From positions 50,651 through 114,650 of the forward strand of contig JBOGVS010000002.1 in the NCBI GenBank assembly GCA_050692555.1: a stretch of 64,000 bases of DNA, in the 5' to 3' direction. Below are positions 22,732-64,000 of the stretch, piece by piece (the first letter of the stretch is position 1; every line of letters begins with the position of its first letter). Both the position numbers and the translations under genes were made by a program. The DNA is from Actinomycetota bacterium (GTDB lineage: Bacteria; Actinomycetota; UBA4738; CALAEC01). The notes beneath the pieces were generated by a model. It saw nothing but the letters and a program-made list of their open reading frames with translations. It was not told the origin of the DNA and did no database searches.

Positions 22732-23286
22732 CTACTCGAGGGCCGCGGCGGCGAACCCCACCTCGAAGCGGCGGCACCACACCACGGCCGTGGAGTACCG
22801 GTCCAGGTCGACGTCCTCCGGGAGATCGTAGTTCTGGTCGCCGATGTTGCCCTTCAGCACGCCGAGATCGACGAAGTCCCGGTCGTAGCCGTGCCAGTCG
22901 TCGGTCCCCGCCGGGGTCTTAGCCGAGAGATACACGACCAGGTCCGGGCCGTTGGAGGTCTCGAAGTCGTCGAACCGCAGGAACCGCCCGCCGGTCGCGG
23001 TCTCCACGATCAGGGCCCGGCCGGTGGACTGGTGCTCCAGGCTGATGAACTCGCCCTCGGCAACGGTGGACGGCCCGGGCATCCCGGCGGCCGTTCCCGG
23101 ATCCTCCTCAGCAGCGGTCTCCGTTTGTGCCGCGGGGGCACCCGGAAGGGCCTCGTTCACCCGGTCCTCGGTGAACAGGCGGTCCGGCCGGAACCACAGG
23201 AACCCGAACACCAGGGCCGCGAGGCCCACGACTCCCACGACCGCGGTGCGTCCCGGATGCCGCCTGATCGCCCCGGTGACGTCCAT
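22732..23286 (-). CDS. DM13-domain membrane-anchored protein (putative electron-transfer domain)
   Basis: N-terminal TM, then EGEFISLEHQSTGRALIVETATGGRFLRFDDFETSNGPDLVVYLS, which matches the DM13 domain. Confidence 0.65.
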   Translation of the reverse strand: MDVTGAIRRHPGRTAVVGVVGLAALVFGFLWFRPDRLFTEDRVNEALPGAPAAQTETAAEEDPGTAAGMPGPSTVAEGEFISLEHQSTGRALIVETATGGRFLRFDDFETSNGPDLVVYLSAKTPAGTDDWHGYDRDFVDLGVLKGNIGDQNYDLPEDVDLDRYSTAVVWCRRFEVGFAAAALE

Positions 23287-23398
23287 TGCTCTCGACCACC
23301 TTACGTTCGGGACGTTGCGGATTCCTTACCGTGCCCGGGATCACCGGGCTCAGAAGGGCGGCAAGGTCTCTGAAACAGTTCCGGGTGACAATGGAGCC

Positions 23399-24084
<686 letters not shown>

Positions 24085-24088
<4 letters not shown>

Positions 24089-37551: not shown

Positions 37552-38694
37552 CTAGGACCCTGCCGTCACCGGCACCAGTGACAGAAGAGCGTCCTCCAGG
37601 ATCAGCCGGGCGTTGAGGTTGGTCTCGTCGGCCAGCGCGGCGCGGGCTTCCTCCAGGTCGGCGATGGCCTTGGCGGCCTCCGGCGCCGGAACGTCGGGCA
37701 GGCTCGCCACGCGGTCCAGGTTGATGGCCCACGACTCCGTTCCCCCCGCCCGCACCAGCAGGGCGTCTCGGAACCACGCTTGGAGAGCCAGCAACGCGGC
37801 GTCGAGGAACTCCCGCTCGGCTCGCCGCTCCTGGCGATGGTGCCGGGCCTGGAGCCGCCGGACCGCCGCGCGGTACTGGTCGACGGGGCGACCGGTCTCC
37901 GGATCCAGGAACGGCTCGAGATCGCCTTCGAGCCGCTTCGCCAGACGGTCCCGGTATCCCGCCGCCCCCTCGGTGAGCCCCTCCACCGCGCGGAGGGCGC
38001 CGGCCTCTCCGGCGGCCACCTCGGTCAGCGCGTGGAGGGCCGCGTCCCGGAACGCCAGACCTTCGGGGTCCGTGGCCACCCGTCGGGCCCGGCCCAGGTT
38101 CCCACCGGCCAGCCGAGCTGCGAGCCGGGCCCGGGGCTCCTCCACGCCCTCGCCCAGCAGGGTCTCCACGACGAACGCCTCGGACAGAGGCCGGAACGTC
38201 ACCGTGTGGCACCGCGACACGATGGTCTCCGGGATCTCGTGCGGCCGCGCCGACGAGAGAAGGAACACCGTGTCGGCGGGCGGTTCCTCAAGGGCCTTCA
38301 GCAGGACGTCGGCGGCCTCCTCGGTCATCCGATCGGCCTGCTCGACGCGGAAGATCTTCCGGCGGGGCTCGGGCGCGGTGAGGTAAGCCCGGGCCACCAG
38401 CCACCTCGCGGTGCCGTCCTCGTCGGGGCCCTCTCCCACCCGGATGTCCCGCCCCTCCGGCTCCACCAGCACCAGGTTGGGATGGCGGTCGCCGAGGGCC
38501 AGGCGGCAGTCCCGGCATTCCCCGCACCCCTCTCGTTCGCACACCAGCGCCGCGGTGAATGCACGAGCGGCGAGCTGCTTCCCCGAGCCCTCCGGACCGG
38601 CGAACAGGTACGCGTGATGGGGCCGCGCCGCCGCCCGCTCGAGGAACGCCACGGCATCCGGCTGGCCGGGGACCCCACGCAGGACCGCGCTCAC
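37552..38694 (-). CDS. holB: DNA polymerase III subunit delta' (HolB)
   Basis: HAYLFAGPEGSGKQLAARAF...CGECRDCRLALGDRHPNL...VLLKALEEPPADTVFLL is clamp-loader AAA+. The GTG start overlaps the tmk stop as GTGA. Confidence 0.8.
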   Translation of the reverse strand: MSAVLRGVPGQPDAVAFLERAAARPHHAYLFAGPEGSGKQLAARAFTAALVCEREGCGECRDCRLALGDRHPNLVLVEPEGRDIRVGEGPDEDGTARWLVARAYLTAPEPRRKIFRVEQADRMTEEAADVLLKALEEPPADTVFLLSSARPHEIPETIVSRCHTVTFRPLSEAFVVETLLGEGVEEPRARLAARLAGGNLGRARRVATDPEGLAFRDAALHALTEVAAGEAGALRAVEGLTEGAAGYRDRLAKRLEGDLEPFLDPETGRPVDQYRAAVRRLQARHHRQERRAEREFLDAALLALQAWFRDALLVRAGGTESWAINLDRVASLPDVPAPEAAKAIADLEEARAALADETNLNARLILEDALLSLVPVTAGS

Positions 38695-40712
38695 TCCTTC
38701 TTCTCCTCCGCTTCCTTCTCTTCCGTCTTCAGGAACTTCTCCAGGGCCTCCCGGACCCGTTGGTGCACCACGTACTCGGTGGCGTCCGCATCCACGACCA
38801 CGAACCGTTCCGGATGATCCTCGGCGATCCGAAGGAACGCATCCGCGACCTTGGCATGGAATCGCTCGTCCTCCCCCTCGATTCGATCCGGCTGGTCCCC
38901 CGCGCGGGCCAGGCCCTTGTCCGGCTCCACGTGGAGGAGGATCACCAGGTCGGGGAACAGCCCCTGGGTGGCCCACACGTTCAGCGAGAGGACGTCCTGC
39001 TCCCCGAGGCCCCGTCCCGCGCCCTGGTACGCCAGGGAGGAGTCCAGGTACCGGTCGCACAGCACGACCTTTCCCTCCTCCAGCGCCGGACGGATCACCC
39101 GGGAGACGTGCTGAGCCCGGCTGGCCGCAAACAGCAGGGCCTCGGCCCGAACGTCGATGGCCTCGTTGCTCCCTCGCAGCAGCGAGTCGCGGAGGCGCTC
39201 GCCCAGGGCGGTCCCCCCCGGCTCCCGGGTCACCAGGACGTCGTGCCCCTCCGACTCCAGCCAGTCCTTGGCCAGGTCGATCTGGGTGCCCTTCCCGGCC
39301 CCCTCAACACCTTCGAAGGCGATGAACGTCCCCCGCCGCTCGATCTTCCGGAGCCTGGGGAACAGCCGGAGGGCTCGGGGACGGGCGAGCCTGCTCTTCG
39401 ACAGGCCGATCCGGGAGAAGATGCCGCCGGCCAGCATGATGCCGGCGCCGACCCATATCGCCCCGCGAGGCCCGTCGTCGCCCGGCGTGAAGCCGAGGTC
39501 GGGGAAGGCCTGCGCCAGGACCGGGAAGCCGGCCAGGGACAGGAACAGGCCCAGACGAGCCAGCACCGTGAGCGTGCCGAACACCCTGCCCCGAAGCTCA
39601 TCGCTGACGTTCTCGTGCAGCAGCGTGTACCCGGTGACCCACGTGGAACCCGCCGCGGCTCCCATGATCACGGTGACGATAGCCGCCAGCAGAACGTTGG
39701 GCATGACCGCCAGCACGATGAGCGCGAATCCCCCGCCGAGGATCGCCAGCGGGAAGTAGATGTCCTTGTCCACCACCTTGTGGACCTGGCCGACGAGGGC
39801 CATGCCCGCGACCATCCCCAAACCCACCGCAGACACCAGGAACCCCCACGCCGTGGCAGTGCCTCCCAGGGTGAACTGGGCGAAGATCGGGCCAACCGAC
39901 ATCACCGCCCCGGCCCCCGTGAACGCCAGCACGATCCCCACCGTCATGGCCCGGGCGAACTGGTGCTCTCGAAGGAACCGGACACCCTCGCGCATGTCCG
40001 AGAAGGCCTCACCGAACTCGAGCTTTCCATCTCTCTTCTTGACTCCCCGGCCGATCCGCTCGGAAGCGAGGCCACGGATCATGTACGCCGAGAACGCGAA
40101 CGTGAGCGCGTCGGCCCACAGGGCGACGGACTCGGGGTTCTGATCGAAATAGGCGACCTGGGCGCCCAGCGCTCCGGCCAGTCCGGCCAGCGCCGTGTAC
40201 ACCAGGCCCGCCAGCGGCAGGGTCCCGTACCCGGTGCCCAGGGTGATGGTGTTCGCGTTGGCCAGCTGCCGGCGGGGAACCAGGTTGGGGATGATGGCGT
40301 CGCGGGCCGGGCTCCACAGCAGCGACAGGCACTCGATCAGGAACGAGATCGAGAAGATCCACGGCAGGTGGGGAATCAACGGGAGCGAGGCGTAGCCAAC
40401 GCCCCGGACCACGTCGGCCACGACCATGAGGCGCTTGCGATCGAACCGATCGACCAGTACCCCGGCGAACGGACCGAACACCAGCGAGGGGAGGAGCCGG
40501 GCCAGCATGATGCCGGAGACCGCGAAACCGGCGCTGCCGCCGCCGATCCGAGTGACCAGGGCCACCACGGCGACGAACCCCACCCAGTCCCCCAGCGAGG
40601 ACACCAAGATGGCCCGATACAGACGGGAGAACGAAGGATCCCGGAGAAGGGTGCGGAAGGTAGCGGGGCGGGTCCCCCGCAGGGCGGCGATCTCTTCGGT
40701 GACCGTCGCCAT
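38691..40712 (-). CDS. tmk: Fusion protein: N-terminal MFS-type 12-TM transporter domain (about 450 aa) plus C-terminal thymidylate kinase
   Basis: MFS-like membrane domain through residue about 455, then FIAFEGVEGAGKGTQ (P-loop), DRY motif and lid (LAYQGAGRGL) of dTMP kinase, in a single ORF of 673 aa. Confidence 0.85.
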   Translation of the reverse strand: MATVTEEIAALRGTRPATFRTLLRDPSFSRLYRAILVSSLGDWVGFVAVVALVTRIGGGSAGFAVSGIMLARLLPSLVFGPFAGVLVDRFDRKRLMVVADVVRGVGYASLPLIPHLPWIFSISFLIECLSLLWSPARDAIIPNLVPRRQLANANTITLGTGYGTLPLAGLVYTALAGLAGALGAQVAYFDQNPESVALWADALTFAFSAYMIRGLASERIGRGVKKRDGKLEFGEAFSDMREGVRFLREHQFARAMTVGIVLAFTGAGAVMSVGPIFAQFTLGGTATAWGFLVSAVGLGMVAGMALVGQVHKVVDKDIYFPLAILGGGFALIVLAVMPNVLLAAIVTVIMGAAAGSTWVTGYTLLHENVSDELRGRVFGTLTVLARLGLFLSLAGFPVLAQAFPDLGFTPGDDGPRGAIWVGAGIMLAGGIFSRIGLSKSRLARPRALRLFPRLRKIERRGTFIAFEGVEGAGKGTQIDLAKDWLESEGHDVLVTREPGGTALGERLRDSLLRGSNEAIDVRAEALLFAASRAQHVSRVIRPALEEGKVVLCDRYLDSSLAYQGAGRGLGEQDVLSLNVWATQGLFPDLVILLHVEPDKGLARAGDQPDRIEGEDERFHAKVADAFLRIAEDHPERFVVVDADATEYVVHQRVREALEKFLKTEEKEAEEKKE

Positions 40713-50915: not shown

Positions 50916-51089
50916 ATGACCGAGGCGGCCGACTCCGGCGACTTCAGCGAACTCTCCGAGGAGGAGCGTCGGATCCTCCTCCAGGTCGTCGAGGTGCTGC
51001 GCCGGATCCGGTTCGGCACGATCCTGCTGATCGTGCAGGACGGGAAGGTAGTGCAGATCGAGATGGCCGAGAAGTTCCGACTTCGGTAG
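50916..51089 (+). CDS. YezD/DUF2292-family 57-aa protein (not in the ORF track)
   Basis: MTEAADSGDFSELSEEERRILLQVVEVLRRIRFGTILLIVQDGKVVQIEMAEKFRLR. The hallmark segment (IRFGTILLIVQDGKVVQIE) matches my recollection of the DUF2292/YezD motif. Confidence 0.5.
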   Translation: MTEAADSGDFSELSEEERRILLQVVEVLRRIRFGTILLIVQDGKVVQIEMAEKFRLR

Positions 51090-51141: not shown

Positions 51142-53445
51142 CTACCTCTTCAGCTGGAACGGCACGCTCGACAGGACCACCCGCGGCTCGAACAGCAGCA
51201 TCCGCTTGATGAACAGCGCCCGGTTGTTGTGCAGCAGTCGGTGCCACCACCGGGTGACCAGGAACTCCGGGACGATCACTGCGGCAATCGTCCCCGGGTC
51301 GGCCGTCTCCTTCCGGACCTCCTCCAGCAGGGGGACGGTGAGGTCCCGGAACGGTGTCTCCACCACATCGAGCTGCATCCGGATGCCTCGCTCTGCCCAC
51401 TGCCGGAGGATCTCCGGTGCCTCCTCCGGCTCGGTGGCCAGGAAGACCGCCCGGGTCTTATGCGCATTGAGGCTGCGGGCGTAGTTGACCGCCCGAACCG
51501 TGGCATCGTGAGCTGCGGCCACAAAGACCAGGGCCACCACCCGCTCGGGGACCAGTGGACGCCCGACGGCATCCTCCGGCTGGTCCCTGCGGGCCAGCAC
51601 GGGAACGTCGGTGACGACCACTCCCGGCTCCTTCAGCAGGCGGAGCTTAAGGCGGAACGTTACCGGACGCGTGATGGCCCGTACCAGGGACCGCGTGGTG
51701 AACAGCTCCGGGATGACCACGGTCACGAAGTCCTTCCCGCCCCGAGGGATACGGCGCACGTGGTCGATCACCCCGTCGACCGGATCGGGGCTCCCCACGG
51801 ACATCAGGCGAGGGGCGCCCGGCGCCATCCTGTTCCACAGACCTTCGGCTTCGGTCGGGAGACGCTTCCCAACGTAGAGCGCATCGATGGAGGCGGGACG
51901 GAACGACCGCACGTATCCCACGGCCTCGGCCGCGGCGGCATCGATGTCCGTCATCACCAGCACCACGCGGGTCTCGCCGACATCCCCGAACGCGGTCCGG
52001 CCCCGTCCGAGCTCCTTCACCACCTCCTCGTAGTGCCGGTGGACCAACGAGAAGAGACCGACCAGGATGGGCATCGCCGCGATAACGATCCACGCTCCGC
52101 CGGCGAACTTCGTGACGGCCACGATCACCAAGACCACGCCCGTGGCGACGGCACCGATCGAGTTGATGACGGCGGCACGCTTCCAGCCCGACTCCCGAAG
52201 ACGGAGCCAGCGCCGCACCATACCCGTCTGGGACAGGGTGAATGCGGTGAACACCCCCACCACGTACAGCTGGATGAGCCGCGTCAGGTCGGCGTCGAAT
52301 GCCCACACCAGAAGGCCGGCCAGCGCGGCCAGCACGAAGATCCCGTTGGAGAACACCAGCCGGTCTCCCCGATTCTTGAATTGACTGGGCATGAAGCGGT
52401 CGCGGGCGAGGATCGCCGAGAGGCGAGGGAAGTCCTGGTACGCCGTGTTCGCCGCCAGGATCAGGATGAGCGCGGTGAAGACCTGGAGCACGTAGAACAT
52501 CGTGCCGCCTGAGAACACGGTCTCCCCGATCTGAGCAAGGACCGACTTCGCCCCCTCGAGGTGCTGACTAACCCGCACGTCCAGTGACCGCGCCAGGAAC
52601 GTGATCCCCAGGAACATGCTGATCGACATGGTCCCCATGACCGCAAGCGTCGTTGCCGCGTTGCGCGACTGGGGGCGGCGGAACGCCTGAACCCCATCGG
52701 CGATGGCCTCCACGCCGGTGAGCGCCGTCGAGCCGGAGGCGAACGCCTTCAGGACGACGAACAACGATAGGGCCTGCCCGGCTTCGAGAGGCAGAGTCGC
52801 GGAGGTCGCCTGACGGCACCCGCCGATGCACTGCACCAGGCCGGTGACCAAGGTGACGGCCACACAGGCCACGAACCCATACGTGGGGATGGCGAAGAGC
52901 GTCCCGGCTTCCTTCACGCCTCGCAGGTTGGCCAGCGAGATGATCGCGATAAGGATCAGGGCGATCGGTACGCGCGCGCCTGCCAACCCCGGCACGGCGG
53001 AGACGATGGCGATCGTTCCCGCCGTCACGCTGACGGCGACGGTAAGGACGTAGTCCTGCAGGATCGCCGCCGCAGCGATCAGACCAGGGACTGTCCCCAG
53101 GTTCTCCCGGGCCACGATGTAGGAACCGCCACCCGCCGGATAGGCCCGCACGGTCTGCCGATAGGAGGTGATGACCACGGCGAGCACCGCGGCGATCACC
53201 GCTGCGATCGGCAGCATCAGGCTGAAGGCGGCCGCTCCCGCCGCCGCCAGCACCAGCATCATCTCCTCGGTGGCGTATGCCACTGAGGAGAGGGGGTCCG
53301 ACGAGAAGACCGGGAGGGCCAGGGTCTTGGGCAGGAGGTGGTGCTCGTGCTTCGCGGTGGAGATGGCCCGGCCCAGTACCACGCGCTTCAAAAGGCCCCG
53401 CCCCCCCGGTTCCGTCCCCCGGGAGGGACGAACGGTCGTCCCCAT
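51142..53445 (-). CDS. APC-superfamily permease fused to two C-terminal USP-like (adenine-nucleotide alpha-hydrolase-like) domains; paralog 1
   Basis: N-terminal 12-TM permease (LLPKTLALPVFSSDPLSSVAYATEE...), then two tandem alpha/beta domains of about 130 aa (RVVLVMTDIDAAAAEAVGYVRS...; RVVALVFVAAAHDATVRAVNYARSL...AAVIVPEFL) with USP-like topology but no ATP-binding Gly motif. The start was chosen at MGTTV by alignment to the paralog. Confidence 0.8.
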   Translation of the reverse strand: MGTTVRPSRGTEPGGRGLLKRVVLGRAISTAKHEHHLLPKTLALPVFSSDPLSSVAYATEEMMLVLAAAGAAAFSLMLPIAAVIAAVLAVVITSYRQTVRAYPAGGGSYIVARENLGTVPGLIAAAAILQDYVLTVAVSVTAGTIAIVSAVPGLAGARVPIALILIAIISLANLRGVKEAGTLFAIPTYGFVACVAVTLVTGLVQCIGGCRQATSATLPLEAGQALSLFVVLKAFASGSTALTGVEAIADGVQAFRRPQSRNAATTLAVMGTMSISMFLGITFLARSLDVRVSQHLEGAKSVLAQIGETVFSGGTMFYVLQVFTALILILAANTAYQDFPRLSAILARDRFMPSQFKNRGDRLVFSNGIFVLAALAGLLVWAFDADLTRLIQLYVVGVFTAFTLSQTGMVRRWLRLRESGWKRAAVINSIGAVATGVVLVIVAVTKFAGGAWIVIAAMPILVGLFSLVHRHYEEVVKELGRGRTAFGDVGETRVVLVMTDIDAAAAEAVGYVRSFRPASIDALYVGKRLPTEAEGLWNRMAPGAPRLMSVGSPDPVDGVIDHVRRIPRGGKDFVTVVIPELFTTRSLVRAITRPVTFRLKLRLLKEPGVVVTDVPVLARRDQPEDAVGRPLVPERVVALVFVAAAHDATVRAVNYARSLNAHKTRAVFLATEPEEAPEILRQWAERGIRMQLDVVETPFRDLTVPLLEEVRKETADPGTIAAVIVPEFLVTRWWHRLLHNNRALFIKRMLLFEPRVVLSSVPFQLKR

Positions 53446-53642
53446 CAGCGGGTCTCGATCCCGCCGTTCCGGGCGCGCGAAGGATCCTCGGCCGGGCTCC
53501 GGGAGCCCGCCATCAGCCGCAGGATGTCCTCGTGGAGCCGGGCCTCCCGGCTGGCGTGCGCGTACTCGCGCCAGGCGATCCAAGACCGGATCACCGGCCC
53601 GACCAGCAGGCCGATCACGAAGCCACTCACCAGCTCAGCCAC
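53445..53642 (-). CDS. 65-aa single-TM micro-ORF translationally coupled to the permease-USP gene
   Basis: GTG start preceded by GGGAGGAGG at an 8-nt spacing. Product VAELVSGFVIGLLVGPVIRSWIAWREYAHASREARLHEDILRL... is a TM helix plus a charged tail. Its stop overlaps the permease ATG (TGATG). Confidence 0.35.
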   Translation of the reverse strand: MAELVSGFVIGLLVGPVIRSWIAWREYAHASREARLHEDILRLMAGSRSPAEDPSRARNGGIETR

Positions 53643-53791
53643 CTGCCCTACCTCCTCCCTCGCTGTTAACGGGCTCAGTGTCGGAGACCACCCGTAAACG
53701 GCCGGTGTGAGTTGGGGGTGAAGCCGTAAGAAGGTCGTTAAGAGGGCACGGAGGCGTTGTCAGTGACGGAGGGGGCGCCCAGACTGATCAC

Positions 53792-55213
53792 GTGCGCGCG
53801 CTTCAGCCGTCCCGATGGCCCCCGCCGTTCCGCGTGGCCATGCCGGCCCTCCTGTTCCCGGGCATCGCCACCGCGCTTGCCGCCCTTCCCTTTACCGTCT
53901 CCACGACCACAGCATCGATGGCCTTCGTCTTGGCGGTCACCGGGGCCGCCGTGGTCGGGGGTTCGGCTGCGGGGTTCGGAGCATCCCTCGTCTCGTTCCT
54001 GGCGCTCAACTTCTTCTTCACGCCTCCGCGGTTCACCTTGAGCGCCGGCAAAGGCGAGGACGTGGTCGCTCTGGTCGTGTTCCTGTTGGTCTCGGCGGTG
54101 GTGGGTTCGCTGTTGTCCCGCGCCATCGCCCAGCGCGTGCGGGCCGAGCGACGGGAGCGAGAAGCCCGGCTCCTTCAATACCTGGGGACGAGACTGTTGT
54201 CGGGAGAACCGCCCGAGGAGATCCTTCAGAGCTTCGGCCAGGCGCTCACCGAGCTGGTCGGCGTGAAGCGGTACGAGGTCTTCCTGGAACCCGGGAACCG
54301 TCTCGCCGTTGAGGCGGGCATCGCCGAACCGGGCCTTCATCTGGAGGAATTCCCAATCCTGTCAGGGAGCGATCGGGTCGGGTCGATCCGCATCCATGCC
54401 GGAGGCGAGCCGTCGGGGCTGGAGGAAGACCGCCGACGCCTGATCCGGGCGTTCGCGGCGCAGCTGGCCCTGGCCCTGGAGAGCGCCCGTCTGGCCCAGG
54501 TGGCCCGGGACGCCCGGGTGAGCGCGGAGCGCAGTCAGCTCCAGGCCGCCCTCCTTCAGTCGGTGACCCACGACCTCCGCACCCCTCTGGCCTCCATCAC
54601 GGCCTCCGTCACCAGCCTCCTCGACGCGAGCATGGAGCTCCGCCGGGAGGACCAGGGTGATCTCCTTGAAACGATCCGCCAGGAGGCCGAACGGCTGGAC
54701 AGATTGGTCGGAAATCTCCTCGACCTGTCCCAGCTGCGGGCCGGCGCCTTGACGCCGTCCAAGCGACCGGCGGCGATCGACGAGGTGGTGGAGGGAGTTC
54801 TAGCTCGCATGGAACCCACGTTGCGCCGGCACCGTCTCAACGTGATCCTCCGAGAGGGTCTGCCCGAGGTACCTTTCGACGTGGTCCAGATCGATCAGGC
54901 CCTGACGAACATCCTGGAGAACGCGGCGAAGTACAGCCCGCCGGGATCCCAGATCACCGTCTCCGCCGCTCGCTGGGACAACACCGTGCAGGTACGGATC
55001 GCCGACCAGGGTCCGGGGATTCCGGGTGACGCGCGTGAACGGGTATTCGAGCCGTTCTTCCGGGCGCCCGGAGGTGCGGCGGAGGGTACGGGGCTGGGGC
55101 TGGCGATCGCCCACGCCGTGGTGACAGCGCACGGGGGCACAATCTGGATCGAGCAAGCACCCGGCGGTGGCACCGCGGTGACCTTCCGGCTCCCATTGAG
55201 CAACCCTGCCTGA
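53792..55213 (+). CDS. KdpD-like sensor histidine kinase lacking the N-terminal KdpD and USP domains (DUF4118 membrane domain, GAF-like region, HisKA, HATPase_c)
   Basis: DUF4118-type TM block with LNFFFTPPRFTLS, H-box VTHDLRTPLASI, and ATPase motifs NILENAAKYSPPGS...GTGLGLAIAHAVV. The start (GTG at 53792 or ATG at 53840) is uncertain. Confidence 0.85.
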   Translation: MRALQPSRWPPPFRVAMPALLFPGIATALAALPFTVSTTTASMAFVLAVTGAAVVGGSAAGFGASLVSFLALNFFFTPPRFTLSAGKGEDVVALVVFLLVSAVVGSLLSRAIAQRVRAERREREARLLQYLGTRLLSGEPPEEILQSFGQALTELVGVKRYEVFLEPGNRLAVEAGIAEPGLHLEEFPILSGSDRVGSIRIHAGGEPSGLEEDRRRLIRAFAAQLALALESARLAQVARDARVSAERSQLQAALLQSVTHDLRTPLASITASVTSLLDASMELRREDQGDLLETIRQEAERLDRLVGNLLDLSQLRAGALTPSKRPAAIDEVVEGVLARMEPTLRRHRLNVILREGLPEVPFDVVQIDQALTNILENAAKYSPPGSQITVSAARWDNTVQVRIADQGPGIPGDARERVFEPFFRAPGGAAEGTGLGLAIAHAVVTAHGGTIWIEQAPGGGTAVTFRLPLSNPA

Positions 55214-55914
55214 TGGTAATCAGGGTGCTGGTCGTGGACGACGATCCGCAGATCCTCCGAGCCGTGCGCACGAGTCTCCAGGCGAGGGGGTACGACGTCC
55301 TGACCGCGGGAAACGGCGAGACGGCTCTCGATCTCATGAGCTCAGAGAACGTCGACATGATGGTCCTGGATCTCAGCCTGCCGGGCATCGACGGGCACGA
55401 GGTGATCCGAAGGATGCGGACCTTCTCGGAGGTGCCGGTGCTGGTCCTTTCGGTACGCGAGTCCCAGGACGACAAGATCCTGGCGCTGGACGCGGGGGCC
55501 GACGACTACGTCACCAAGCCCTTTGGCATCGGCGAGCTACTGGCCCGGATGCGCGCTCTGGAACGCCGCGCTCATCCCAACGCCGCTTCGCCACCGATCC
55601 TTCGGTTCGGTGAGCTGGAAGTCGACCTCCGCCGGCAGCTCGTGCGCCGGGGGAGCGAGCCGATCCGGCTCACCCCCACCGAATACCGCCTGCTGGAAGC
55701 CATGGTCACCAACCCCGGGAAGCTGCTCACCCATCGGTGGCTCTTGAGCAGGGTGTGGGGGCCTGGATACGCGACCGAGACCCACTACGTGCGGATCTAC
55801 GTCCGACAGCTCCGACAGAAACTGGGCGATGATCCGGCCCGCCCCCGGTACGTCGTCACGGAGTCCGGACTGGGCTACCGGTGGCTCCCTGAGCCCGAGG
55901 AGCGGGCCCCCTGA
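55213..55914 (+). CDS. KdpE-like OmpR-family response regulator
   Basis: Receiver domain plus winged helix. The C-terminal LTHRWLLSRVWGPGYATETHYVRIYVRQLRQKLGDDPARPRYVVTESGLGYRW closely matches E. coli KdpE. 1-nt overlap with the HK gene. Confidence 0.9.
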   Translation: MVIRVLVVDDDPQILRAVRTSLQARGYDVLTAGNGETALDLMSSENVDMMVLDLSLPGIDGHEVIRRMRTFSEVPVLVLSVRESQDDKILALDAGADDYVTKPFGIGELLARMRALERRAHPNAASPPILRFGELEVDLRRQLVRRGSEPIRLTPTEYRLLEAMVTNPGKLLTHRWLLSRVWGPGYATETHYVRIYVRQLRQKLGDDPARPRYVVTESGLGYRWLPEPEERAP

Positions 55915-55997
55915 GGAGACGGCGGGGGGGTAGCTCGCCAGGAGTCGTCCAGAAAAGACATCACCCGGCGAGCGGACCCCCTGAGGAGACATTGAGC

Positions 55998-56543
55998 TCA
56001 CAGCTCGATCTCAGAAGCCACCGACTGGAGACCCTCGATCCCCAGGGCGATGAACTCGTCGAGGGGTACTCCGAGACTGTCCTCGACATCGGTGATCTCC
56101 TGGCGGTTGACACCGGGAGCGAAGGCCTTCTCCTTCAGCTTCTTCTTCACCGACGAGACCTTCATTCCGTCCGCCTTTTGCGGCCGGACCAACGCCGCGG
56201 CGACCAGCAGTCCGGCGACCGCATCGGCGTGCACCACGGCCTTGGACATCCGATCCGTCCGATAGGACTCGTGGGCATGGGCCAGGACCCCGTTCACCAC
56301 CTTCTCGTCGACGCCTGCTTCCCGCAGCCATTCGGCCGCCTGGTAGGCGTGCCGGTCCGGGTTGTCGTGCGTCTGGTCCTGGTCGAGATCGTGGAACAGC
56401 CCGACGAGCGCCCATGTGTCCTCGTCCTCGCCGAAATGCTGGGCCAGCCGCCGCATCACTCCCTCCACGCTGATCAGGTGGCGGACGGTGGTCTCCTTCT
56501 CCCCTTTCTCCCGTACCAGCTTCAGCGCTTCACCTCGATCCAT
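55998..56543 (-). CDS. HD-domain phosphohydrolase
   Basis: HD motif (VGLFHDLD...HAYQAAEWL...VLAHAHE). Co-oriented with permease paralog 2 and overlapping it by 14 nt. Confidence 0.7.
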   Translation of the reverse strand: MDRGEALKLVREKGEKETTVRHLISVEGVMRRLAQHFGEDEDTWALVGLFHDLDQDQTHDNPDRHAYQAAEWLREAGVDEKVVNGVLAHAHESYRTDRMSKAVVHADAVAGLLVAAALVRPQKADGMKVSSVKKKLKEKAFAPGVNRQEITDVEDSLGVPLDEFIALGIEGLQSVASEIEL

Positions 56544-58815
56544 TCGACCTCCTGATCTTGTAGGGCACGCTCGAGAGCACCACCCGCGATTCGAACAACA
56601 GCATGCGCTTGATGAACAGAGCCCGGTTGTTGTGGAGCAGCCGATGCCACCACCGGGTCACGAGGAACTCGGGCAGGATCACCGCGGCCAGGGTGGACGG
56701 GTCGGTCGTGACTCGCCGGACCTCTTCGAGAAGCGGCGGCCCCAGGTCGCGGAACGGAGCCTCGACCACGTCGAGGCGGATGCCGATGCCTCGCTCTGCC
56801 CACCGCTGCAGGATCTCGGGGGCTTCCTCCGGTTCGGTGGCCAGGAAGACGGCTCTGGTCTCGTGGGCGTTCAGGCTCCGGGCGTAGTTGACGGCCCGCA
56901 CGGTGGCATCGTTGACGGAGGAGACGAACACCAGAGCTTCCACTCGCGGAGGGATCAGCGCCCGGCCGTCCACCCCCACGAGCTCCCCTTCTTGTGCCAG
57001 CACCGGCACGTCGGTCACGACCACCTGTGGCTCGGCCAGGAGCCTAACCTTCAGGCGGAACGTGACCGGCTTTACCAGAGCCCGCACAAGCGACCTCGTC
57101 GGGAAGAACTCAGGGATCACAACGGTCACGAAGTCCCCCGGGTCACGAGGGACCCGGCGAACATGCTCGATGACCGCCTCCACTCGCGATCTCCCCTCCG
57201 CCGGCTCCAGCGGCGGAAGCCCGCGACTCATCTCGGCCCAGAGCGCCTGGGCGTCCCCGATCGGCCGGTCCCCGGCGTAGACGGGGTGGACCTCGGCCGG
57301 CCGGAGCGAGCGGACGTATCCGAGGGCCTCGGCGGTGGCGGGATCGAAGTCGGTCAGCACCAGCACGACCCGGTTGAGCCCCGGATCACGGTAGTTGACG
57401 TCGTGGCGATCCAGCGCAGCGGAGACCGCCGTGTAATGCCGATTCACCTGGAGCAGGGCGGTGATCATGATCGGCAGGGCCGCGACGACCATCCAGGCTC
57501 CTTCGGCAAACCGGGTCACCACCACCACGGCGAGGACCACTCCGGTCGTGGTCGCCCCGATCCCGTTTATCATCGCGTTCCGTCGCCAGCCCGCTTCCTT
57601 GGTGCTGGCCCACCTCCGCACCATCCCGGATTGAGAAAGGGTGAACGCGGTGAACACGCCGACCAGGTAGAGCGGGATCAGGCGCGTGAGCCTTCCATCA
57701 AATGCCCACACCAGCGCTCCGGCCAGGACCGACAGCACCAGGATCCCGTTCGAGAACACCAGCCGGTCTCCGCGGTTCTTGAACTGCCCGGGCATGAAGC
57801 GATCTCGCGCCAGGATCGCCGACAGCCGGGGGAAGTCCTGGTACGCGGTGTTGGCGGCCACGATCAGGATCATGGCCGTGAACGCCTGCAGCCCGATAAA
57901 GAGCGCACCGCGACCGAAGATCGTTGCCCCGATCTGAGACAAAACCGACCGCGAGGCCACGATCTCCTCCGTGACCCGGACGTCCAGCGTCCTGGCCAGG
58001 AACGTGATCCCCAGGAACATGGAGATCGACATCACGGCCATCACCGAGAGCGTCGCCGCGGCATTCTTGCCTTGCGGCCTCCGGAAGGCCTGGACGCCGT
58101 CGGCGATGGCCTCAACCCCCGTCAGGGCGGATGATCCCTGAGTGAAGGCCTGCAACACGAGGAAGATCGTGATCGACTGCGTGGCCTCCAGAGGCAGCCC
58201 GGCGGTGGCTGCTTCCGGGCATCCGCCGACGCATCTGACGAGCCCGGTTATCACGGTCAAGCCCACCACCGCGACGAAGCCGTAGGTGGGGACGGCGAAC
58301 AACATGCCCGACTCCCGCACCCCCCGGAGGTTGACCAGCGCAATGAGGGCGATGAACCCCAACGCCAGGTTCACGCGATGCGGCGCGAGCTCGGGGACGG
58401 CTGACGTGATCGCGATTGCTCCGGCGGTCACACTGACCGCGGCGGTGACGACGTAGCCGATCAGGATGGCGGAGGCGGCCAGGAGGCCCGGGAAGGTGCC
58501 GAGGTTCTCGCGGGCCACGATGTATGAGCCACCTCCGCGAGGATATGCCCGGACGGTCTGGCGATAGGAAGTCACGACGATCAGGAGGACGGCCGCGATG
58601 GCCAGCCCGATGGGCACCATGAGAGCCAGGGCTGCCGCGCCGGCCAGCACCAGGATCAACATCATCTCCTCGGTGGCGTAGGCCACGGAAGACAGGGGAT
58701 CTGAGGAGAACACCGGCAGGGCTAACGTCTTGGGGAGGAGGTGATGTTCTGTCTTGGCGGTGGAGATCGCCCGGCCCAGAATGACCCGCTTCAGGGTGTC
58801 GCCGACGGTGGCCAC
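56530..58815 (-). CDS. APC-superfamily permease fused to two C-terminal USP-like domains; paralog 2 (Rv2690c-like position next to trkA)
   Basis: Full-length paralog of 51142..53445; the 3' ends share about 85% nucleotide identity. Divergently adjacent to the trkA pair, as M. tuberculosis Rv2690c is to ceoB/ceoC. Confidence 0.8.
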   Translation of the reverse strand: MATVGDTLKRVILGRAISTAKTEHHLLPKTLALPVFSSDPLSSVAYATEEMMLILVLAGAAALALMVPIGLAIAAVLLIVVTSYRQTVRAYPRGGGSYIVARENLGTFPGLLAASAILIGYVVTAAVSVTAGAIAITSAVPELAPHRVNLALGFIALIALVNLRGVRESGMLFAVPTYGFVAVVGLTVITGLVRCVGGCPEAATAGLPLEATQSITIFLVLQAFTQGSSALTGVEAIADGVQAFRRPQGKNAAATLSVMAVMSISMFLGITFLARTLDVRVTEEIVASRSVLSQIGATIFGRGALFIGLQAFTAMILIVAANTAYQDFPRLSAILARDRFMPGQFKNRGDRLVFSNGILVLSVLAGALVWAFDGRLTRLIPLYLVGVFTAFTLSQSGMVRRWASTKEAGWRRNAMINGIGATTTGVVLAVVVVTRFAEGAWMVVAALPIMITALLQVNRHYTAVSAALDRHDVNYRDPGLNRVVLVLTDFDPATAEALGYVRSLRPAEVHPVYAGDRPIGDAQALWAEMSRGLPPLEPAEGRSRVEAVIEHVRRVPRDPGDFVTVVIPEFFPTRSLVRALVKPVTFRLKVRLLAEPQVVVTDVPVLAQEGELVGVDGRALIPPRVEALVFVSSVNDATVRAVNYARSLNAHETRAVFLATEPEEAPEILQRWAERGIGIRLDVVEAPFRDLGPPLLEEVRRVTTDPSTLAAVILPEFLVTRWWHRLLHNNRALFIKRMLLFESRVVLSSVPYKIRRSNGSR

Positions 58816-58867: not shown

Positions 58868-59533
58868 GTGAGATCGATGCATCTGGTGATCATGGGTTGC
58901 GGGCGGGTGGGGGCCGAACTGACCGTGCAGCTTTCCAAGGCCGGACACACCGTCTGCATCGTCGACAAGCGGAAGGAGGCCTTCGAGCGTCTCCCGCCGG
59001 GGTTCAACGCCAAGACCATCGTGGGCATCGGGTTCGACCGCGAGGTCCTGGAGGAGGCCGGGATCAAGGAGGCCGACGCGTTCATCGCCGTGTCCAACGG
59101 GGACAACTCCAACATCGTCTCGGCCCGGGTGGCCCGGGAGCACTACCGGGTCCCCAAGGTCATCGCCCGGATCTACGACCCCCGGCGAGCGGAGATCTAC
59201 GAGCGGCTGGACATCCCCACGGTGGCCACGGTCCGGTGGGCGGCCAAGCAGGTCCAGTACCTCCTGTTCCACGGCAAGGAGACCATGCGGGACACCCTGG
59301 CTGGCGGCTCCCTCCTCCACCTGGCGGTTGGGATCCCCGATCACCTGGTTGGCAAGCAGGCCGACAGCGTGCACTCAGAGGGGGAGGTGGAGGTCGTCGG
59401 GGTCGAGCGGGGCGGCGAGGGGTTCATCCCCACCCCCGACTCCACCTTCAAGGAAGGCGACGTGGCCCACTTCATCGTGCACAAAGACCACGTGGACAAG
59501 TTCGACATGCTGCTCGAACCGGTGGCCGAATGA
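58868..59533 (+). CDS. trkA: TrkA-family K+ transport regulatory protein (RCK N + C domains)
   Basis: HLVIMGCGRVGAEL Rossmann fold with a TrkA_C domain; CeoB-like. Confidence 0.85.
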   Translation: MRSMHLVIMGCGRVGAELTVQLSKAGHTVCIVDKRKEAFERLPPGFNAKTIVGIGFDREVLEEAGIKEADAFIAVSNGDNSNIVSARVAREHYRVPKVIARIYDPRRAEIYERLDIPTVATVRWAAKQVQYLLFHGKETMRDTLAGGSLLHLAVGIPDHLVGKQADSVHSEGEVEVVGVERGGEGFIPTPDSTFKEGDVAHFIVHKDHVDKFDMLLEPVAE

Positions 59534-59639: not shown

Positions 59640-60323
59640 TTGAGGATCGTGGTGGCCGGCGCGGGCAACATCGGCCGTTACATGGCCCACGACCTGGTGG
59701 AGCGAGGCCACGAGGTGTCGCTGATCGAGCAGGACCCCGCCATGGCCGAGCGGGCTAGCCACGACGTCGCCGAGGACGTCACTATGGTTTTGGGCGATGC
59801 CTGCGAGCCATGGGTCCTGGACAAGGCCGACGTCCGCTCCTCGGACGTGATGGTTGCCGCGACGGGCGACGACGAGGACAACCTGGTGATCTCCTTGCTC
59901 TCGAAACAGGAGTACGGCGTTCCCCGAGTGGTGGCCCGGGTCAACCACCCCAAGAACGAGTGGCTGTTCAACGAGACCTGGGGCGTCGACGTGGCCATGA
60001 GCCCACCGCACGTCCTCACCGCTCTGGTCGAGGAAGCCGTGACGGTGGGCGACCTGGTGCGGCTGTTCAAGCTGGAGCGAGGCCAGGTCACCCTGGTGGA
60101 GCTGACCATCGACGAGAACGCCCCGATGCAGGGCCGGCCCCTCTACGAGCTCCGGCTTCCTCCCGACTCCGCCATCGTGGCCATCCTCCGGGGCGGCCAC
60201 GTGGTCATCCCCCAACCCGAGACCCAGATCGTGGGCGGGGACGAGGTCATGGCCATCGCCACGCCGGAAGCCGAGGATAAGCTTCGCACCACGTTGCTCG
60301 GCCCGCCCTCGTCGAGCGGGTAG
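59640..60323 (+). CDS. trkA: TrkA-family K+ transport regulatory protein, second copy (CeoC-like)
   Basis: RIVVAGAGNIGRYMAHDLVERGHEV Rossmann fold with a TrkA_C domain. The start is probably TTG/GTG (59640 or 59648). Confidence 0.8.
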   Translation: MRIVVAGAGNIGRYMAHDLVERGHEVSLIEQDPAMAERASHDVAEDVTMVLGDACEPWVLDKADVRSSDVMVAATGDDEDNLVISLLSKQEYGVPRVVARVNHPKNEWLFNETWGVDVAMSPPHVLTALVEEAVTVGDLVRLFKLERGQVTLVELTIDENAPMQGRPLYELRLPPDSAIVAILRGGHVVIPQPETQIVGGDEVMAIATPEAEDKLRTTLLGPPSSSG

Positions 60324-60683
60324 CTACGACGCGAACTCGAACCGAGGATTGACCATCCGGTAGGAGGCGCTGTCCACGGCGATCACGCCCTCGAGGACCA
60401 CCGGGGTGCCCAGGGACAGACCGGGGATGTGGCTCCGCCCCAGCCACGCCGCGGTGACCTCGCCGGTACCGTCGGAGACCACGGCCTCCAGAGTCACCGA
60501 GCCGTTCATCGGCCGAAGGGTGAGCCTGCTCACTTGCCCGGCCACCCGGACCGGTTCCCGGCTGGGGCAGCCCTCGATCCGCCGCACGCCGGGGACGCTC
60601 TCGGCCCACGTCTTGATCTCCTCATCCAGCAGCTCCTCGTCGGACCGCCGGAAGCGATGGAGGAACCTGCTCAACCGGCCCAC
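60324..60683 (-). CDS. OB-fold nucleic-acid-binding domain protein, hypothetical
   Basis: 119-aa ORF. The C-terminal VRVAGQVSRLTLRPMNGSVTLEAVVSDGTGEVTAAWLGRSHIPGLSLGTPVVLEGV resembles tRNA_anti-like OB folds. Confidence 0.5.
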   Translation of the reverse strand: MGRLSRFLHRFRRSDEELLDEEIKTWAESVPGVRRIEGCPSREPVRVAGQVSRLTLRPMNGSVTLEAVVSDGTGEVTAAWLGRSHIPGLSLGTPVVLEGVIAVDSASYRMVNPRFEFAS

Positions 60684-60692
60684 ACCACTAGG

Positions 60693-62954
60693 CTAACTCG
60701 CCTTGGTGGTCACCGCCGCGGCTTCGGGGCTGGGCGGCCCGCTCTCCGGGACCAGCTCGGCGGTCTTGAGCCGTTTCGAGTACCAGATGGCCCCGGTCAC
60801 CACGGCCAGGGCACCCACGGCCACCACCGCCCGCACCACGCCGTCGTCGGCGAAGGAGACCACCAACGGAGCGGCCAGCAGAGCCACCAGGTTCATCACC
60901 TTGATCAGCGGGTTGAGCGCAGGCCCCGCGGTGTCCTTGAACGGGTCCCCCACCGTGTCCCCGATCACCGTGGCCTTGTGAGGCTCGGACCCCTTGCCTC
61001 CGTAGAGGCCCTCCTCGATGAGCTTCTTGGCGTTGTCCCACGCCCCACCGGCGTTCGAGAGCATCACCGCCAGCAGCTGGCCGGTGAGGATGGCACCGGC
61101 CAGGTACGCCCCCAGGGCCTCGGCCTCCAGGGCGAAGCCAACGAAGATGGGGGCCAAGACGGCCAGCAGCCCGGGCGTGAGGAGCTCGCGCAACGAGGTC
61201 CGGGTACAGATGTCCACCACCCGGCCGTAGTCCGGGGTCTCGGTCCCGTCCATGATCCCCGGGTGGTCGCGGAACTGGTTGCGAACCTCCACCACCACCT
61301 GGGCCGCGGCCCGGCCCACCGCCCGGATGGCCAGTGCGGAGAACATGAACGCGATCGACCCCCCGATCAGCAGACCGACCAGCACGTCGGGGTGGTTGAT
61401 CCGGATGTCCAGACCGCCGCCCACCGCCTGCTCGAACGATCCGAACAGTGAGGTGGCGGCGATCACCGCGGTGGCGATGGCCATCCCCTTGGTGATGGCC
61501 TTGGTGGAGTTCCCCACGGCGTCGAGACCGGCGAGGATCTCCGCGGGCTTCCCCTCGAACTCGCCGGACATCTCGGCGATCCCCTGGGCGTTGTCGGCGA
61601 CCGGACCGTAGGTGTCCATGGACACGATGACACCGACCGTTGTGAGCATCCCCATCCCGGTCAGCGAGATGAAGTACAGACGCTCGGCGGTGTTGTCCCC
61701 CAGGAGGAACGCTCCGGTCATCGTCGCCGCGATCAGCAGGATGGCGTACACGGTGGACTCCAGGCCCACCGAGAAGCCCGAGAGGATCGTGGTCGCCGCG
61801 CCGGTCTGCGAGGACGAGGCGATCTCCTGGACCGGCTTGCGCTTGGTGGACGTGAAGTGCTCGGTGATGACCTGGATCAGGGCGGCCAGGACCAGGCCCA
61901 TCACCACGGCCCAGAACACCCTGATGTCGTCGACGTACAGCGTGGCCACCACATACACCGCGGCCGCCGACAGGATGGCCGAGAGGAAGAAGCCCCGGTT
62001 GATGGCCCTCATCCCGTGCTCGGTCTCCGACCGGGGGCGCACGGCGTAGATCCCGATGATCGAGGTGATGACCCCGATGGCCCGGACGAACAGCGGGAAC
62101 ATCACGCCGACGATGGCGCCCTCCGGCGACCCTGCGAACGCCGCGGCTCCCAGGATGATCGAGGCCACCAGGGTGACCTCGTAGGACTCGAACAGGTCGG
62201 CGGCCATCCCCGCGCAGTCGCCCACGTTGTCCCCGACGTTGTCTGCGATCACCGCCGCGTTGCGGGGGTCGTCCTCCGGGATGTTCTTCTCCACTTTCCC
62301 CACCAGGTCCGCGCCCACGTCGGCGGCCTTGGTGAAGATCCCTCCGCCGACCCGCATGAACATGGCCAGGAGGGCTCCCCCGAACCCGAACCCCACCAGC
62401 ACGGAGGTGGCGTCCTCCTTGTAGATGAGGAGGATGGCCGCGGCTCCCAGGAGCCCCAGGCCCACGGTGAACATCCCGGCGACCCCACCGGTCCGGAACG
62501 CTATGGTCAGGGCTCGCCGGAGCCCCGCCTCACGGGCGGCGTTGGCCACCCGCACGTTGCCCCGCACCGCCAGCCACATCCCGGCGAAGCCGGTGACGGC
62601 CGAGAACCCCGCCCCCAGGACGAAGGCGAGGGACCGCCCGAACCGGATCGAGAAGTCGCCGGCCCGCACCGGGTCGACCGGGAGGACGAAGAACAGCGCC
62701 ACGGCCAGGATGCCCAGGAACAGCCCGACGGTCCGGAACTGGCGGTTCAGATACGCGCGACTCCCAACCTGGATGGCCTCGGCGATCTGGCGCATCTTCG
62801 GGGTGCCCTCGGGCGCCGCCAGGACCCAGCGACGGAGCACGTAGGCCACCACCAGAGCCAGGAGGGAGATCCCCAGGATGACCATCAGGGCGTTGTCTTC
62901 GAACGATCCGAAGACGGCCTCGATGGAGCCGCCTTCCTGGCCCAGCACGTGCAT
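60693..62954 (-). CDS. hppA: Membrane-bound proton/sodium-translocating pyrophosphatase
   Basis: 16-TM V-PPase. Motifs [41 protein letters not shown] and [14 protein letters not shown]. Confidence 0.9.
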
Positions 62955-63012: not shown

Positions 63013-64000
63013 CTAGCCCCTGTTGCCGGCCTCGCCTTCCTCGCCTCGTCGCACCAGAGGACCCAGGACCGGCGGGGTCGCCAGTGTGGTGACCACGGTC
63101 ATGACGATCACCACACCGAACAGGTCGGCGTCGAGGCCCAGACCCAGACCCAGTGAAGCCACGATCAGTCCCACCTCGCCGCGAGGCACCATTCCCACCC
63201 CCACGGTCAGCGCGGTCGCCCGGCCCAGTCCGGCCGAGCCCAGGTACCCTCCCGCCACCTTGGTGATCACCGCGAGGACCGTGACCGCGGCGGCCAGCCC
63301 CAGGATCGAGGGATCCCCGAACACGGTCGGGTCGAGGCGACTGCCGGTGATGGCGAAGAAGAAGGGGACCAGGAACTCGTACACGGGCTCGATCTGGGTG
63401 GCCACCTCCTCCTTGCGGAACTCGAATACCAGCCCGGCGAGAAACGCTCCGATGATCGCGGCCAGCCCGATGACCTCGGAGAGCGCGGCGAGGCCCAGGG
63501 TGAGGAGCACCGCGATCAGGAACGGTGATTCGGGGACCCCCGGGAGCCTGAGAACCCTGGACAGGCGCCGGGTGGCCCCCGGTCCCAGGAGGAGGACGAC
63601 CGCCAGGAACACGAGCACCTCGCCCACGAGGAACAGGAACGAGAAGGTGGAGAGGTCGCCAGCGGCCAGTCCGGCCACCACCGCCAGCACGATGATCGCC
63701 AGGATGTCGTCGACCACCGCCGCCCCGAGCACCACCCGGGCGGCCGTGGTCTGCACGGCGTTGAGGTCCCGCAACACCCGGGCGGTGACCCCAACGCTGG
63801 TGGCCACGATGGCAGCAGAGACGAACAAGGAGTCCACCCGGTCGTAGCCCAGCCCGAACATGAGGCCGATCCCCGCGGCGAACGGCAGCACGACCCCGAG
63901 GAACCCCGCCGACAGCGCCGCCCGCCCGACGCGCCGGAGGTCATCCAGCCGGGTCTCCAGCCCCACGGTGAACAGCAGGATGATGACGCCCAGCTCCGCC
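63013..64000 (-). CDS. Cation:proton antiporter (CPA1/CPA2, Na+/H+ or K+/H+ exchanger family); N-terminus lies outside the window
   Basis: C-terminal 317 aa show Na_H_Exchanger TM helices (LGAIIGAFLAGLVF...EPVYEFLVPFFFAITG). Confidence 0.8.
   Translation of the reverse strand, partial: AELGVIILLFTVGLETRLDDLRRVGRAALSAGFLGVVLPFAAGIGLMFGLGYDRVDSLFVSAAIVATSVGVTARVLRDLNAVQTTAARVVLGAAVVDDILAIIVLAVVAGLAAGDLSTFSFLFLVGEVLVFLAVVLLLGPGATRRLSRVLRLPGVPESPFLIAVLLTLGLAALSEVIGLAAIIGAFLAGLVFEFRKEEVATQIEPVYEFLVPFFFAITGSRLDPTVFGDPSILGLAAAVTVLAVITKVAGGYLGSAGLGRATALTVGVGMVPRGEVGLIVASLGLGLGLDADLFGVVIVMTVVTTLATPPVLGPLVRRGEEGEAGNRG

Follow-up and report, generated by a model that had tools for sequence, protein, structure and literature searches.

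A two-component system of the KdpD/KdpE type appears to have been coupled to potassium transporters of the KimA family in an uncultured soil Actinomycetota bacterium. We analysed 64,000 nucleotides of contig JBOGVS010000002.1 from this organism (the window hereafter; G+C content ~69%) and found a region that can be read as a K+-homeostasis island of two conserved modules. Module A would consist of a sensor kinase and response regulator, transcribed divergently from a gene for a 65-amino-acid membrane protein and a KimA-type gene, kimA1; module B would consist of a second KimA-type gene, kimA2, a downstream HDIG-domain gene and a divergent pair of trkA genes. On the basis of sequence and synteny, we estimate a probability of about 60% that KimA-type K+ uptake is here under the control of a KdpDE-like circuit. 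KdpDE is treated as a dedicated regulator of KdpFABC, and, to our knowledge, KimA is known solely under the control of cyclic di-AMP (c-di-AMP), which acts through a riboswitch and by direct binding. In the literature that we searched, we found no paper that connects KimA with a KdpDE-like system, describes the tandem-tail form of KimA reported below, or gives Rv2690c of Mycobacterium tuberculosis a role in K+ transport. Rewiring of a KdpDE-type circuit onto KimA is well supported and apparently undescribed. Four open reading frames, at 51142..53445/53583 (minus strand), 53792..55213 (plus), 55213..55914 (plus) and 56530..58815 (minus), had been picked out in a sequence-only reading of the region, and all four are present; two further genes, at 53445..53642 (minus) and 55998..56543 (minus), were absent from its list.

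The permeases themselves are the firmest part of the argument. kimA1 (51142..53445, minus strand, with the reading frame open to 53445/53583) encodes 767 amino acids that comprise 12 transmembrane (TM) helices and a tandem C-terminal domain resembling universal stress proteins (USPs); kimA2 (56530..58815, minus strand) encodes 761 amino acids with the same kind of tail, and the two proteins are 70% identical. When we compared kimA2 with the PDB using phmmer, the best match was KimA of Bacillus subtilis (6s3k/8b70; E 3e-117), and the next family, the LAT amino-acid transporters, reached only E 1e-3. Residues 7-468 and 628-755 of kimA2 align to KimA 4-461 and 477-606, respectively, with residues 469-627 skipped. 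In B. subtilis KimA (also called YdaO; PDB 6S3K, 8B70/8B71), D36, Y43, T121, T230 and Y377 make up the K+ site and gates, and E233 acts in proton coupling (PMC6994465, PMC10284832). The equivalents of all of these residues, and of S125, are identical in kimA1 and kimA2, within a common 12-TM LeuT/APC fold. Taken together, the homology and the retained K+ and H+ residues indicate that both permeases are almost certainly K+/H+ symporters of the KimA branch of the KUP family. The sequence-only reading had guessed at K+ transport, and homology to KimA points to the same answer. It had also known of no description of this architecture; we likewise found no paper on the arrangement, but KimA itself has already been characterized structurally and functionally (PMC10284832).

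Database labels would suggest a different substrate. The sole Pfam match of the permeases is AA_permease_2, and the source annotations all read "APC family permease" or "amino acid transporter", as would be expected if these proteins carried amino acids or polyamines and the island were unrelated to K+. We consider this highly improbable. KimA belongs to the same Pfam family and was itself once annotated as an amino acid permease; moreover, the distance between E 3e-117 for KimA and 1e-3 for the nearest amino-acid transporter is large, the K+-binding and H+-coupling residues are all kept, and the genes nearby encode TrkA, a KdpDE-like pair and cation transporters.

The window proteins differ from B. 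subtilis KimA in their genetic setting. There is no ydaO (c-di-AMP) riboswitch upstream of either kimA gene, and an Rfam scan of the whole window returned only a tRNA; hence, KimA is not under Bacillus-type control here. Instead, one kimA gene adjoins the KdpDE-like pair and the small membrane-protein gene, and the other adjoins trkA and HDIG genes. KimA-like genes have been noted before in the actinobacterium Streptomyces venezuelae (Vnz_27465 and Vnz_15480), where they are unstudied (PMC10117811); as in the window, actinobacterial KimA-like genes often occur in two copies. A search of a plasmid collection returned KimA-like homologues from Streptomyces and Rhodococcus that are 40-45% identical to the window proteins and 635-670 amino acids long, a length that implies a single tail domain.

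The additional length of the window proteins lies in the cytoplasmic tail. We modelled residues 466-761 of kimA2 with AlphaFold2, using 40 aligned homologues, and obtained two successive alpha/beta domains (pLDDT 86.7, pTM 0.88). The last domain (56545..56949, minus strand) is homologous to the c-di-AMP-binding domain of KimA and aligns to KimA 477-606. The first domain (56950..57390, minus strand), of ~150 amino acids, falls outside the KimA alignment and is absent from the B. subtilis protein. The two domains are 33% identical (E 6e-14), indicating that the extra domain is a duplicate of KimA's own. With the tail as query against 1.84 billion cluster representatives, 2470 clusters matched at E<=1e-3, and 868 did so at E<=1e-10. 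Alignments across both tail domains are seen for many proteins 750-800 amino acids long, down to ~32% identity, and the tandem-tail form is therefore a broad subfamily.

Each domain of the model has the USP alpha/beta fold, and it is by fold only that the tail is USP-like: Pfam Usp (PF00582) has no match in kimA2 residues 466-761, even at E<=1. Hence, the description of the permeases as paralogues with two tandem USP-like domains holds for the fold and for the paralogy, but it is not matched by family membership. The predicted structure agrees with the presence of a USP-like nucleotide-binding fold on the transporter tails. The sequence-only reading had gone further, proposing that the permeases bear the USP modules in place of KdpD; by extension, KdpD's USP sensor would have moved onto the permeases, and the transporters would sense nucleotides as partners of the truncated kinase in signal detection, much as trigger transporters do. 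We think this unlikely. The kinase has indeed lost that part of KdpD, and the tails do carry the fold; however, B. subtilis KimA already has this cytoplasmic domain (PMC6994465), the tail is homologous to it and arose by internal duplication, the tail also occurs in KimA proteins without such a kinase, and the ATP motif of the USP family is missing along with the Pfam match. Since KimA already carries the domain, the tail is native to the KimA family and was not relocated from KdpD. The central puzzle of the sequence-only reading dissolves because the USP-like tails belong to KimA.

Nucleotide binding by the tail is plausible. In B. subtilis, c-di-AMP binds the cytoplasmic domain of KimA (PMC10284832), and the alpha/beta C-terminal domain has an H-N motif there as in the window. 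The window retains the equivalents of H579 and N580 (LLHNNRA), two of the residues that contact c-di-AMP, and has changes at other pocket positions (R337 to S or G, P479 to F, Q581 to N and S582 to R). HNQ(T/S) is frequent among more distant family members, about a third of which have Arg at the 337 position. Tascon et al. likened the cytoplasmic domain of KimA to PPAT and to the tail of cation-chloride cotransporters (CCCs). The tandem tail resembles the C-terminal domain of the SLC12 cation-chloride cotransporters (NKCC1, KCC; CCC C-terminal domain, PDB 3G40) by fold only, at 7-13% identity, with no detectable sequence relation. Unlike the SLC12 case, the duplication in the window proteins is recent enough to be detected from sequence, and their membrane domain is of the KimA type, not SLC12. 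Tandem USPs (Rv2623, UspE, TTHA0350 and the PA14 USP 7MQ5) differ in other respects: their domains are not fused to a transporter as the tail domains are, and the G-x2-G-x9-G-S/T ATP motif is, by eye, replaced in the tail by PEF...HNN.

The duplication that gave rise to kimA1 and kimA2 is old, because both copies are also present where the kinase of the locus shares only 57-62% identity with that in the window. It had been suggested that the 3' ends of the genes are about 85% identical, as a result of recent duplication or gene conversion. We found instead 70% nucleotide identity overall and 77-82% over the last 370 nt, and the longest identical run, of 27 nt, is within the TM-encoding portion. 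For the last domain, all comparisons, whether orthologous or paralogous, gave 73-86% identity. We therefore attribute the similarity to constraint and reject recent gene conversion at the 3' ends in this genome. Elsewhere the paralogues have a mosaic history: in its membrane domain, kimA1 of the window is nearer to the trkA-linked than to the kinase-linked copy of the related loci L002 and L003 (86% and 77%). The two copies in L003 resemble one another in their C-terminal halves more than they resemble any orthologue (73% and 86%), suggesting that these halves have likely undergone concerted evolution. These comparisons point to exchange between paralogues in the lineage, which is undetectable at the window's 3' ends.

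The two-component system lies between the two transporter genes. The kinase (53792..55213, plus strand) has 473 amino acids, with a DUF4118 block of four TM helices (E 1.6e-22) that contains LNFFFTPP, a weak GAF-like stretch as linker, HisKA (2.8e-15) and HATPase_c (7.2e-30). Its best NCBIfam match is to positions 593-884 of the 895 of KdpD (201.8 bits), and the best match of its core in the PDB is KdpD 6lgq. E. coli KdpD is divided into a hydrophilic region (1-400), TM helices (401-498) and a C-terminal region (499-894) (PMC2440551); the window kinase corresponds to the span 401-894. Pfam detected neither the KdpD N-terminal domain (PF02702) nor Usp in the kinase. The upstream neighbour is the divergent small gene, so no kinase N-terminus is hidden there. 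Thus, the view that the kinase has the C-terminal architecture of KdpD without the N-terminal KdpD/USP sensor is upheld. We provisionally took GTG 53792 as the kinase start because of the conserved spacing to promoter-like elements; the public gene call starts at ATG 53840. Truncation of this kind is not peculiar to the window. Kinase homologues in metagenomes number in the thousands at E<=1e-20; the best 120 listed are all ~430-500 amino acids long and have the same three domains, and those with names are labelled KdpD by JGI. More than 50 related loci likewise encode the short form.

The response regulator (55213..55914, plus strand; 233 amino acids) belongs to the OmpR family (Pfam Response_reg and Trans_reg_C), and its start overlaps the kinase stop. 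It scores 238.5 bits against NCBIfam KdpE and 191.7 bits against MtrA; in the PDB, its best match is E. coli KdpE (227 bits, E 2.9e-66), followed by RegX3 as the next family (157 bits). Hence, its earlier classification as KdpE-like is correct. The pair shares with KdpD/KdpE of kdpFABC the four-helix DUF4118 block, HisKA and HATPase, and a regulator nearest to KdpE, and it likewise adjoins, and presumably regulates, a K+ uptake system. It differs in that the kinase has neither the KdpD N-terminal nor the USP domain, and in that the neighbouring target is a secondary symporter and not a P-type pump. We found no kdpA, kdpB or kdpC, by Pfam scan, among the large open reading frames of the 64-kb window, nor in the gene tables of five related loci, and no large open reading frame of the window encodes a KdpD N-terminal domain or Usp. 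The earlier statement that kdpFABC genes are missing therefore holds for the window, which is the extent of our data. In six related loci (L049, L061, L066 at 4916..6978, L069, L074 and L078), the trkA genes adjoin a further kinase-regulator pair, paralogous to the first, in which the kinase is 34-37% and the regulator 52-56% identical to that of the window.

To assess the linkage between kinase and transporter, we examined other genomes. A scan with the KimA alignment, limited to one genome per species, yielded 78 loci, all from uncultured Actinomycetota and with 53-73% identity, which we screened by tblastn with the window proteins; 47 of these were well flanked, with at least 2.5 kb on both sides. 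A short kinase lies within 3 kb of the KimA gene in 53 of the 78 loci (36 of the 47 well-flanked loci), a trkA pair is nearby in 45 (29 of 47), and an HDIG gene is directly downstream of the KimA gene in 41 (29 of 47). All 47 well-flanked loci have a kinase or a trkA pair. Two or more KimA genes are present in 37 loci (22 well flanked). Starting from the kinase instead, the look-ups that returned neighbouring genes, for five homologues 57-100% identical, identified a divergent KimA gene in five of five.

The gene order varies. In module A, the kinase and regulator genes either diverge from the small gene and the KimA gene that follows it, or run co-directionally as kinase, regulator and KimA. 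In module B, trkA1 and trkA2 diverge from one or two KimA genes followed by the HDIG gene. The two modules are adjacent in the window and lie on separate contigs in some genomes (L020 versus L031; L026 versus L039 and L042). This variety of gene orders argues for selection on the kinase-KimA linkage. The two copies in the window also differ at the position of KimA D117, the residue proposed for trans-inhibition by internal K+: kimA1 has D (ILQDYVLT) and kimA2 has G. Across related loci, the D is invariant in all 25 copies that are preceded by the small gene, and the G is limited to a subset of copies with HDIG directly downstream, these copies following a trkA pair or a response regulator. A separate group of loci (L019, L025, L034 at 4526..6820, L044, L056, L078 and L082) carries a third KimA paralogue, far more distant (38-43% identity) and placed between the kinase and the trkA pair, so that up to three KimA genes surround one two-component system.

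A candidate operator lies between the kinase and kimA1 operons. Conservation with L002-L004 extends over the portion of the divergent region nearest the kinase, which contains, at 53726..53742 (plus strand), the direct repeat GTAAGaaggtcGTTAAG, which is kept in L002 and L003; the 19-nt sequence CGTAAGAaggTCGTTAAGA at 53725..53743 occurs once in the window. In related loci, GTAAG-N6-GTAAG is found upstream of kinase genes, often twice. Direct repeats with 11-bp spacing are the usual type of site for regulators of the OmpR family. We scanned 1.33 Mb of related loci for GTAAG-N6-GTAAG, allowing at most one mismatch. Of 25 matches, 21 are within the 13.6 kb upstream of kinase genes, which represents 1% of the sequence, an enrichment of ~500-fold. 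In all, 24 of 25 lie in a two-component control region, each on the sense strand of the kinase: 21 between the kinase and the small or KimA genes, 1 between the response regulator and the small gene-KimA operon, and 2 upstream of the second paralogous two-component system, which in L066 and L074 has its own GTGAG-N6-GTAAG repeat upstream. No repeat was found before kimA2 or trkA, even with two mismatches allowed. The repeat is likely the binding site of the regulator; in comparison with the KdpDE system, the window's candidate operator is defined by comparison alone. These data refine the proposal that the KdpDE-like pair controls both transporters: control of kimA1 is probable, given the conserved linkage and the candidate operator, but kimA2 belongs to a separate trkA/HDIG module.

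Between the repeat and the kinase gene, we noted a promoter-like TTGTCA-N17-CAGACT at 53758..53786 (plus strand), read from the sequence and kept in the alignment with L002-L004. It ends just before GTG 53792, which suggests a leaderless kinase mRNA. A strict scan for sigma-70 promoters and terminators over 53400..53850 returned nothing.

The interval 53446..53791 had been regarded purely as a divergent regulatory region, which cannot stand: it holds most of a conserved gene (53445..53642, minus strand) that is called in L001-L004. The 65-amino-acid product has one TM helix followed by a charged helix. A GGAGG Shine-Dalgarno sequence precedes the gene, and its stop overlaps the kimA1 start by 1 nt, an arrangement that indicates translational coupling to kimA1. 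Twenty-eight homologues align around the core G..GLL.GP..RSW..WREY..ASREARL, and the length varies between 61 and 68 amino acids across loci (for example, 9659..9844 in L002 and 9657..9863 in L003). The protein has no Pfam or NCBIfam match. It probably acts on KimA1 or on the kinase, as a subunit or a modulator.

In module B, kimA2 is, as had been noted, beside trkA genes, and it is divergent from two of them. trkA1 (58877..59533, plus strand) encodes an RCK protein with TrkA_N and TrkA_C, and trkA2 (59652..60323, plus strand) encodes a second; both are assigned by Pfam, by NCBIfam TrkA and by the gene calls in L001. The trkA1/kimA2 spacer is 61 bp long and includes, six bases before the kimA2 GTG, a TAGAAT box that would make a good promoter box. 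On the other side, the HDIG gene (55998..56543, minus strand; 181 amino acids) shares 14 nt with the 3' end of kimA2. The HDIG protein is 82-91% identical across loci, more than the transporter. Sequence and fold place it among nucleotide/dinucleotide phosphohydrolases, within which hydrolases of c-di-AMP, Ap4A and alarmones are not separable; among the proteins nearest to it in fold are PgpH, a c-di-AMP phosphodiesterase, and YqeK, an Ap4A hydrolase.

We found no membrane subunit of the TrkH/KtrB type among the window open reading frames scanned with Pfam, nor among the called genes of five related loci. A tentative addition to our explanation is that the two RCK proteins act as regulatory subunits of KimA2, in the place of TrkH, and that the HDIG protein degrades the nucleotide that closes the transporter. 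This would fit the trkA pair that diverges from a KimA gene, and the HDIG gene that directly follows one, each in 29 of the 47 well-flanked loci, as well as the lack of a TrkH-like gene in the tables of the five loci and the kinship of the HDIG fold with PgpH and YqeK; we favour it less than control of kimA1 by the KdpDE-like pair. M. tuberculosis offers a parallel. There, Rv2690c, which we take from the sequence-only reading to lie beside ceoB/ceoC, would hold the position of kimA2. In papers on this species, "Trk" consists of CeoB and CeoC, described with no membrane subunit named, and a co-essentiality study linked ceoB and ceoC to Rv2694c and Rv3200c, not to Rv2690c. The synteny of trkA and kimA may bear on the missing membrane partner of CeoB and CeoC.

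We propose that the membrane kinase, which is equivalent to KdpD from its TM helices onward, responds to K+ status by phosphorylating the KdpE-type regulator. The regulator would then bind the direct repeat GTAAG-N6-GT(T)AAG, with its 11-bp spacing, in the divergent promoter region, and would activate both its own operon and the opposite operon of the small gene and kimA1, leading to import of K+ with protons by KimA1. By analogy with KdpDE, K+ limitation is the most likely inducing signal. Loss of the N-terminal half of KdpD makes sense in such a circuit because the output is a symporter and not the KdpFABC pump; in E. coli, the N-terminal region of KdpD reportedly acts post-translationally on KdpFABC, as a serine kinase on the pump (PMC11018627). 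The kimA2-HDIG operon, divergent from the trkA pair and with no operator motif, would probably provide separately controlled K+ uptake. A nucleotide on the duplicated tail would probably gate both transporters allosterically.

Several points count against this scheme. The kinase's 201.8 bits compare with an NCBIfam KdpD equivalog cut-off of 1123, the regulator's 238.5 with a KdpE cut-off of 325, and the kinase core is barely nearer to KdpD than to HK853 (113 versus 108 bits). The window's repeat is an imperfect copy, reading GTTAA at the 11-bp spacing. In the c-di-AMP pocket, KimA1 has S and KimA2 has G in place of the contact residue Arg337, in addition to the N and R found for Q581 and S582. 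The 78 loci are related to each other, so the counts are not independent events, and the Streptomyces and Rhodococcus homologues have no adjacent two-component system in two of two cases checked. The signal could be osmolarity, pH or Na+, given that an H+-pyrophosphatase and a Na+/H+ exchanger are among the neighbours. Finally, kdpFABC and a full-length KdpD may exist elsewhere in the genome, possibly also under the control of the pair.

The last two points lead to the most serious competing explanation, in which the pair answers another cue (pH, Na+, envelope stress or an osmotic upshift) or has distant genes such as kdpFABC as its main targets, with kimA1 as a secondary target at most. The sub-threshold KdpD and KdpE scores, the barely decisive kinase core and the ion-exchange neighbours are all compatible with it, and the remaining genome is outside our data. 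However, adjacency of kinase and KimA holds in several gene orders, including the co-directional kinase-regulator-KimA order, 24 of 25 repeats lie in two-component control regions, and the regulator is 70 bits nearer to KdpE than to any other solved regulator. We therefore judge this explanation to be distinctly less likely than control of KimA-type uptake by a K+-responsive, KdpDE-like pair. The latter can also be taken to its extreme, in which inducible K+ uptake has been wholly rebuilt on KimA: KdpD without its N-terminus, together with KdpE, would induce a KimA that needs the 65-amino-acid subunit, the TrkA pair would gate the second KimA, and the HDIG protein would remove the nucleotide that locks the tail. 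We regard this complete version as doubtful.

The surroundings of the island contain further genes of interest. After the trkA genes lie genes for an OB-fold protein (60324..60683, minus strand), a membrane H+-pyrophosphatase (60693..62954, minus) and a Na+/H+ exchanger (63013..63966, minus); this order is kept in many loci and extends the ion-homeostasis island. On the other side, a DUF2292 gene of 57 amino acids (50916..51089, plus), conserved in L002, separates an ABC transporter operon from kimA1. A second two-component system (22952..25308, plus), which consists of an OmpR-type regulator with a long N-terminal extension of its reading frame and a HAMP kinase, is apparently unrelated to the K+ island. 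Next to topA, a conserved gene (38691..40712, minus) encodes a protein of ~670 amino acids in which thymidylate kinase is fused to an MFS transporter domain; it is also found in L003 (1483..3471) and L085 (13170..15176). The remaining genes of the window are ordinary chromosomal core genes, encoding ClpC, LysS, PanC, FolP, FtsH, TilS and TopA.

If KimA-type uptake is indeed under a KdpDE-like circuit, the C-terminal half of KdpD would be a self-sufficient, portable sensor of K+ status, in keeping with the recent view of the KdpD N-terminus as directed at the pump. Assignment of these permeases to KimA would also correct thousands of database entries now labelled as amino-acid permeases, and the tandem-tail KimA would represent a bacterial counterpart of the two-lobed C-terminal domain of SLC12 transporters. 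Lastly, the trkA-kimA-HDIG module provides a candidate membrane partner for actinobacterial TrkA, including CeoB and CeoC of M. tuberculosis; if TrkA and KimA do act as partners, this would explain how the mycobacterial "Trk", presumably encoded next to Rv2690c, operates without TrkH.

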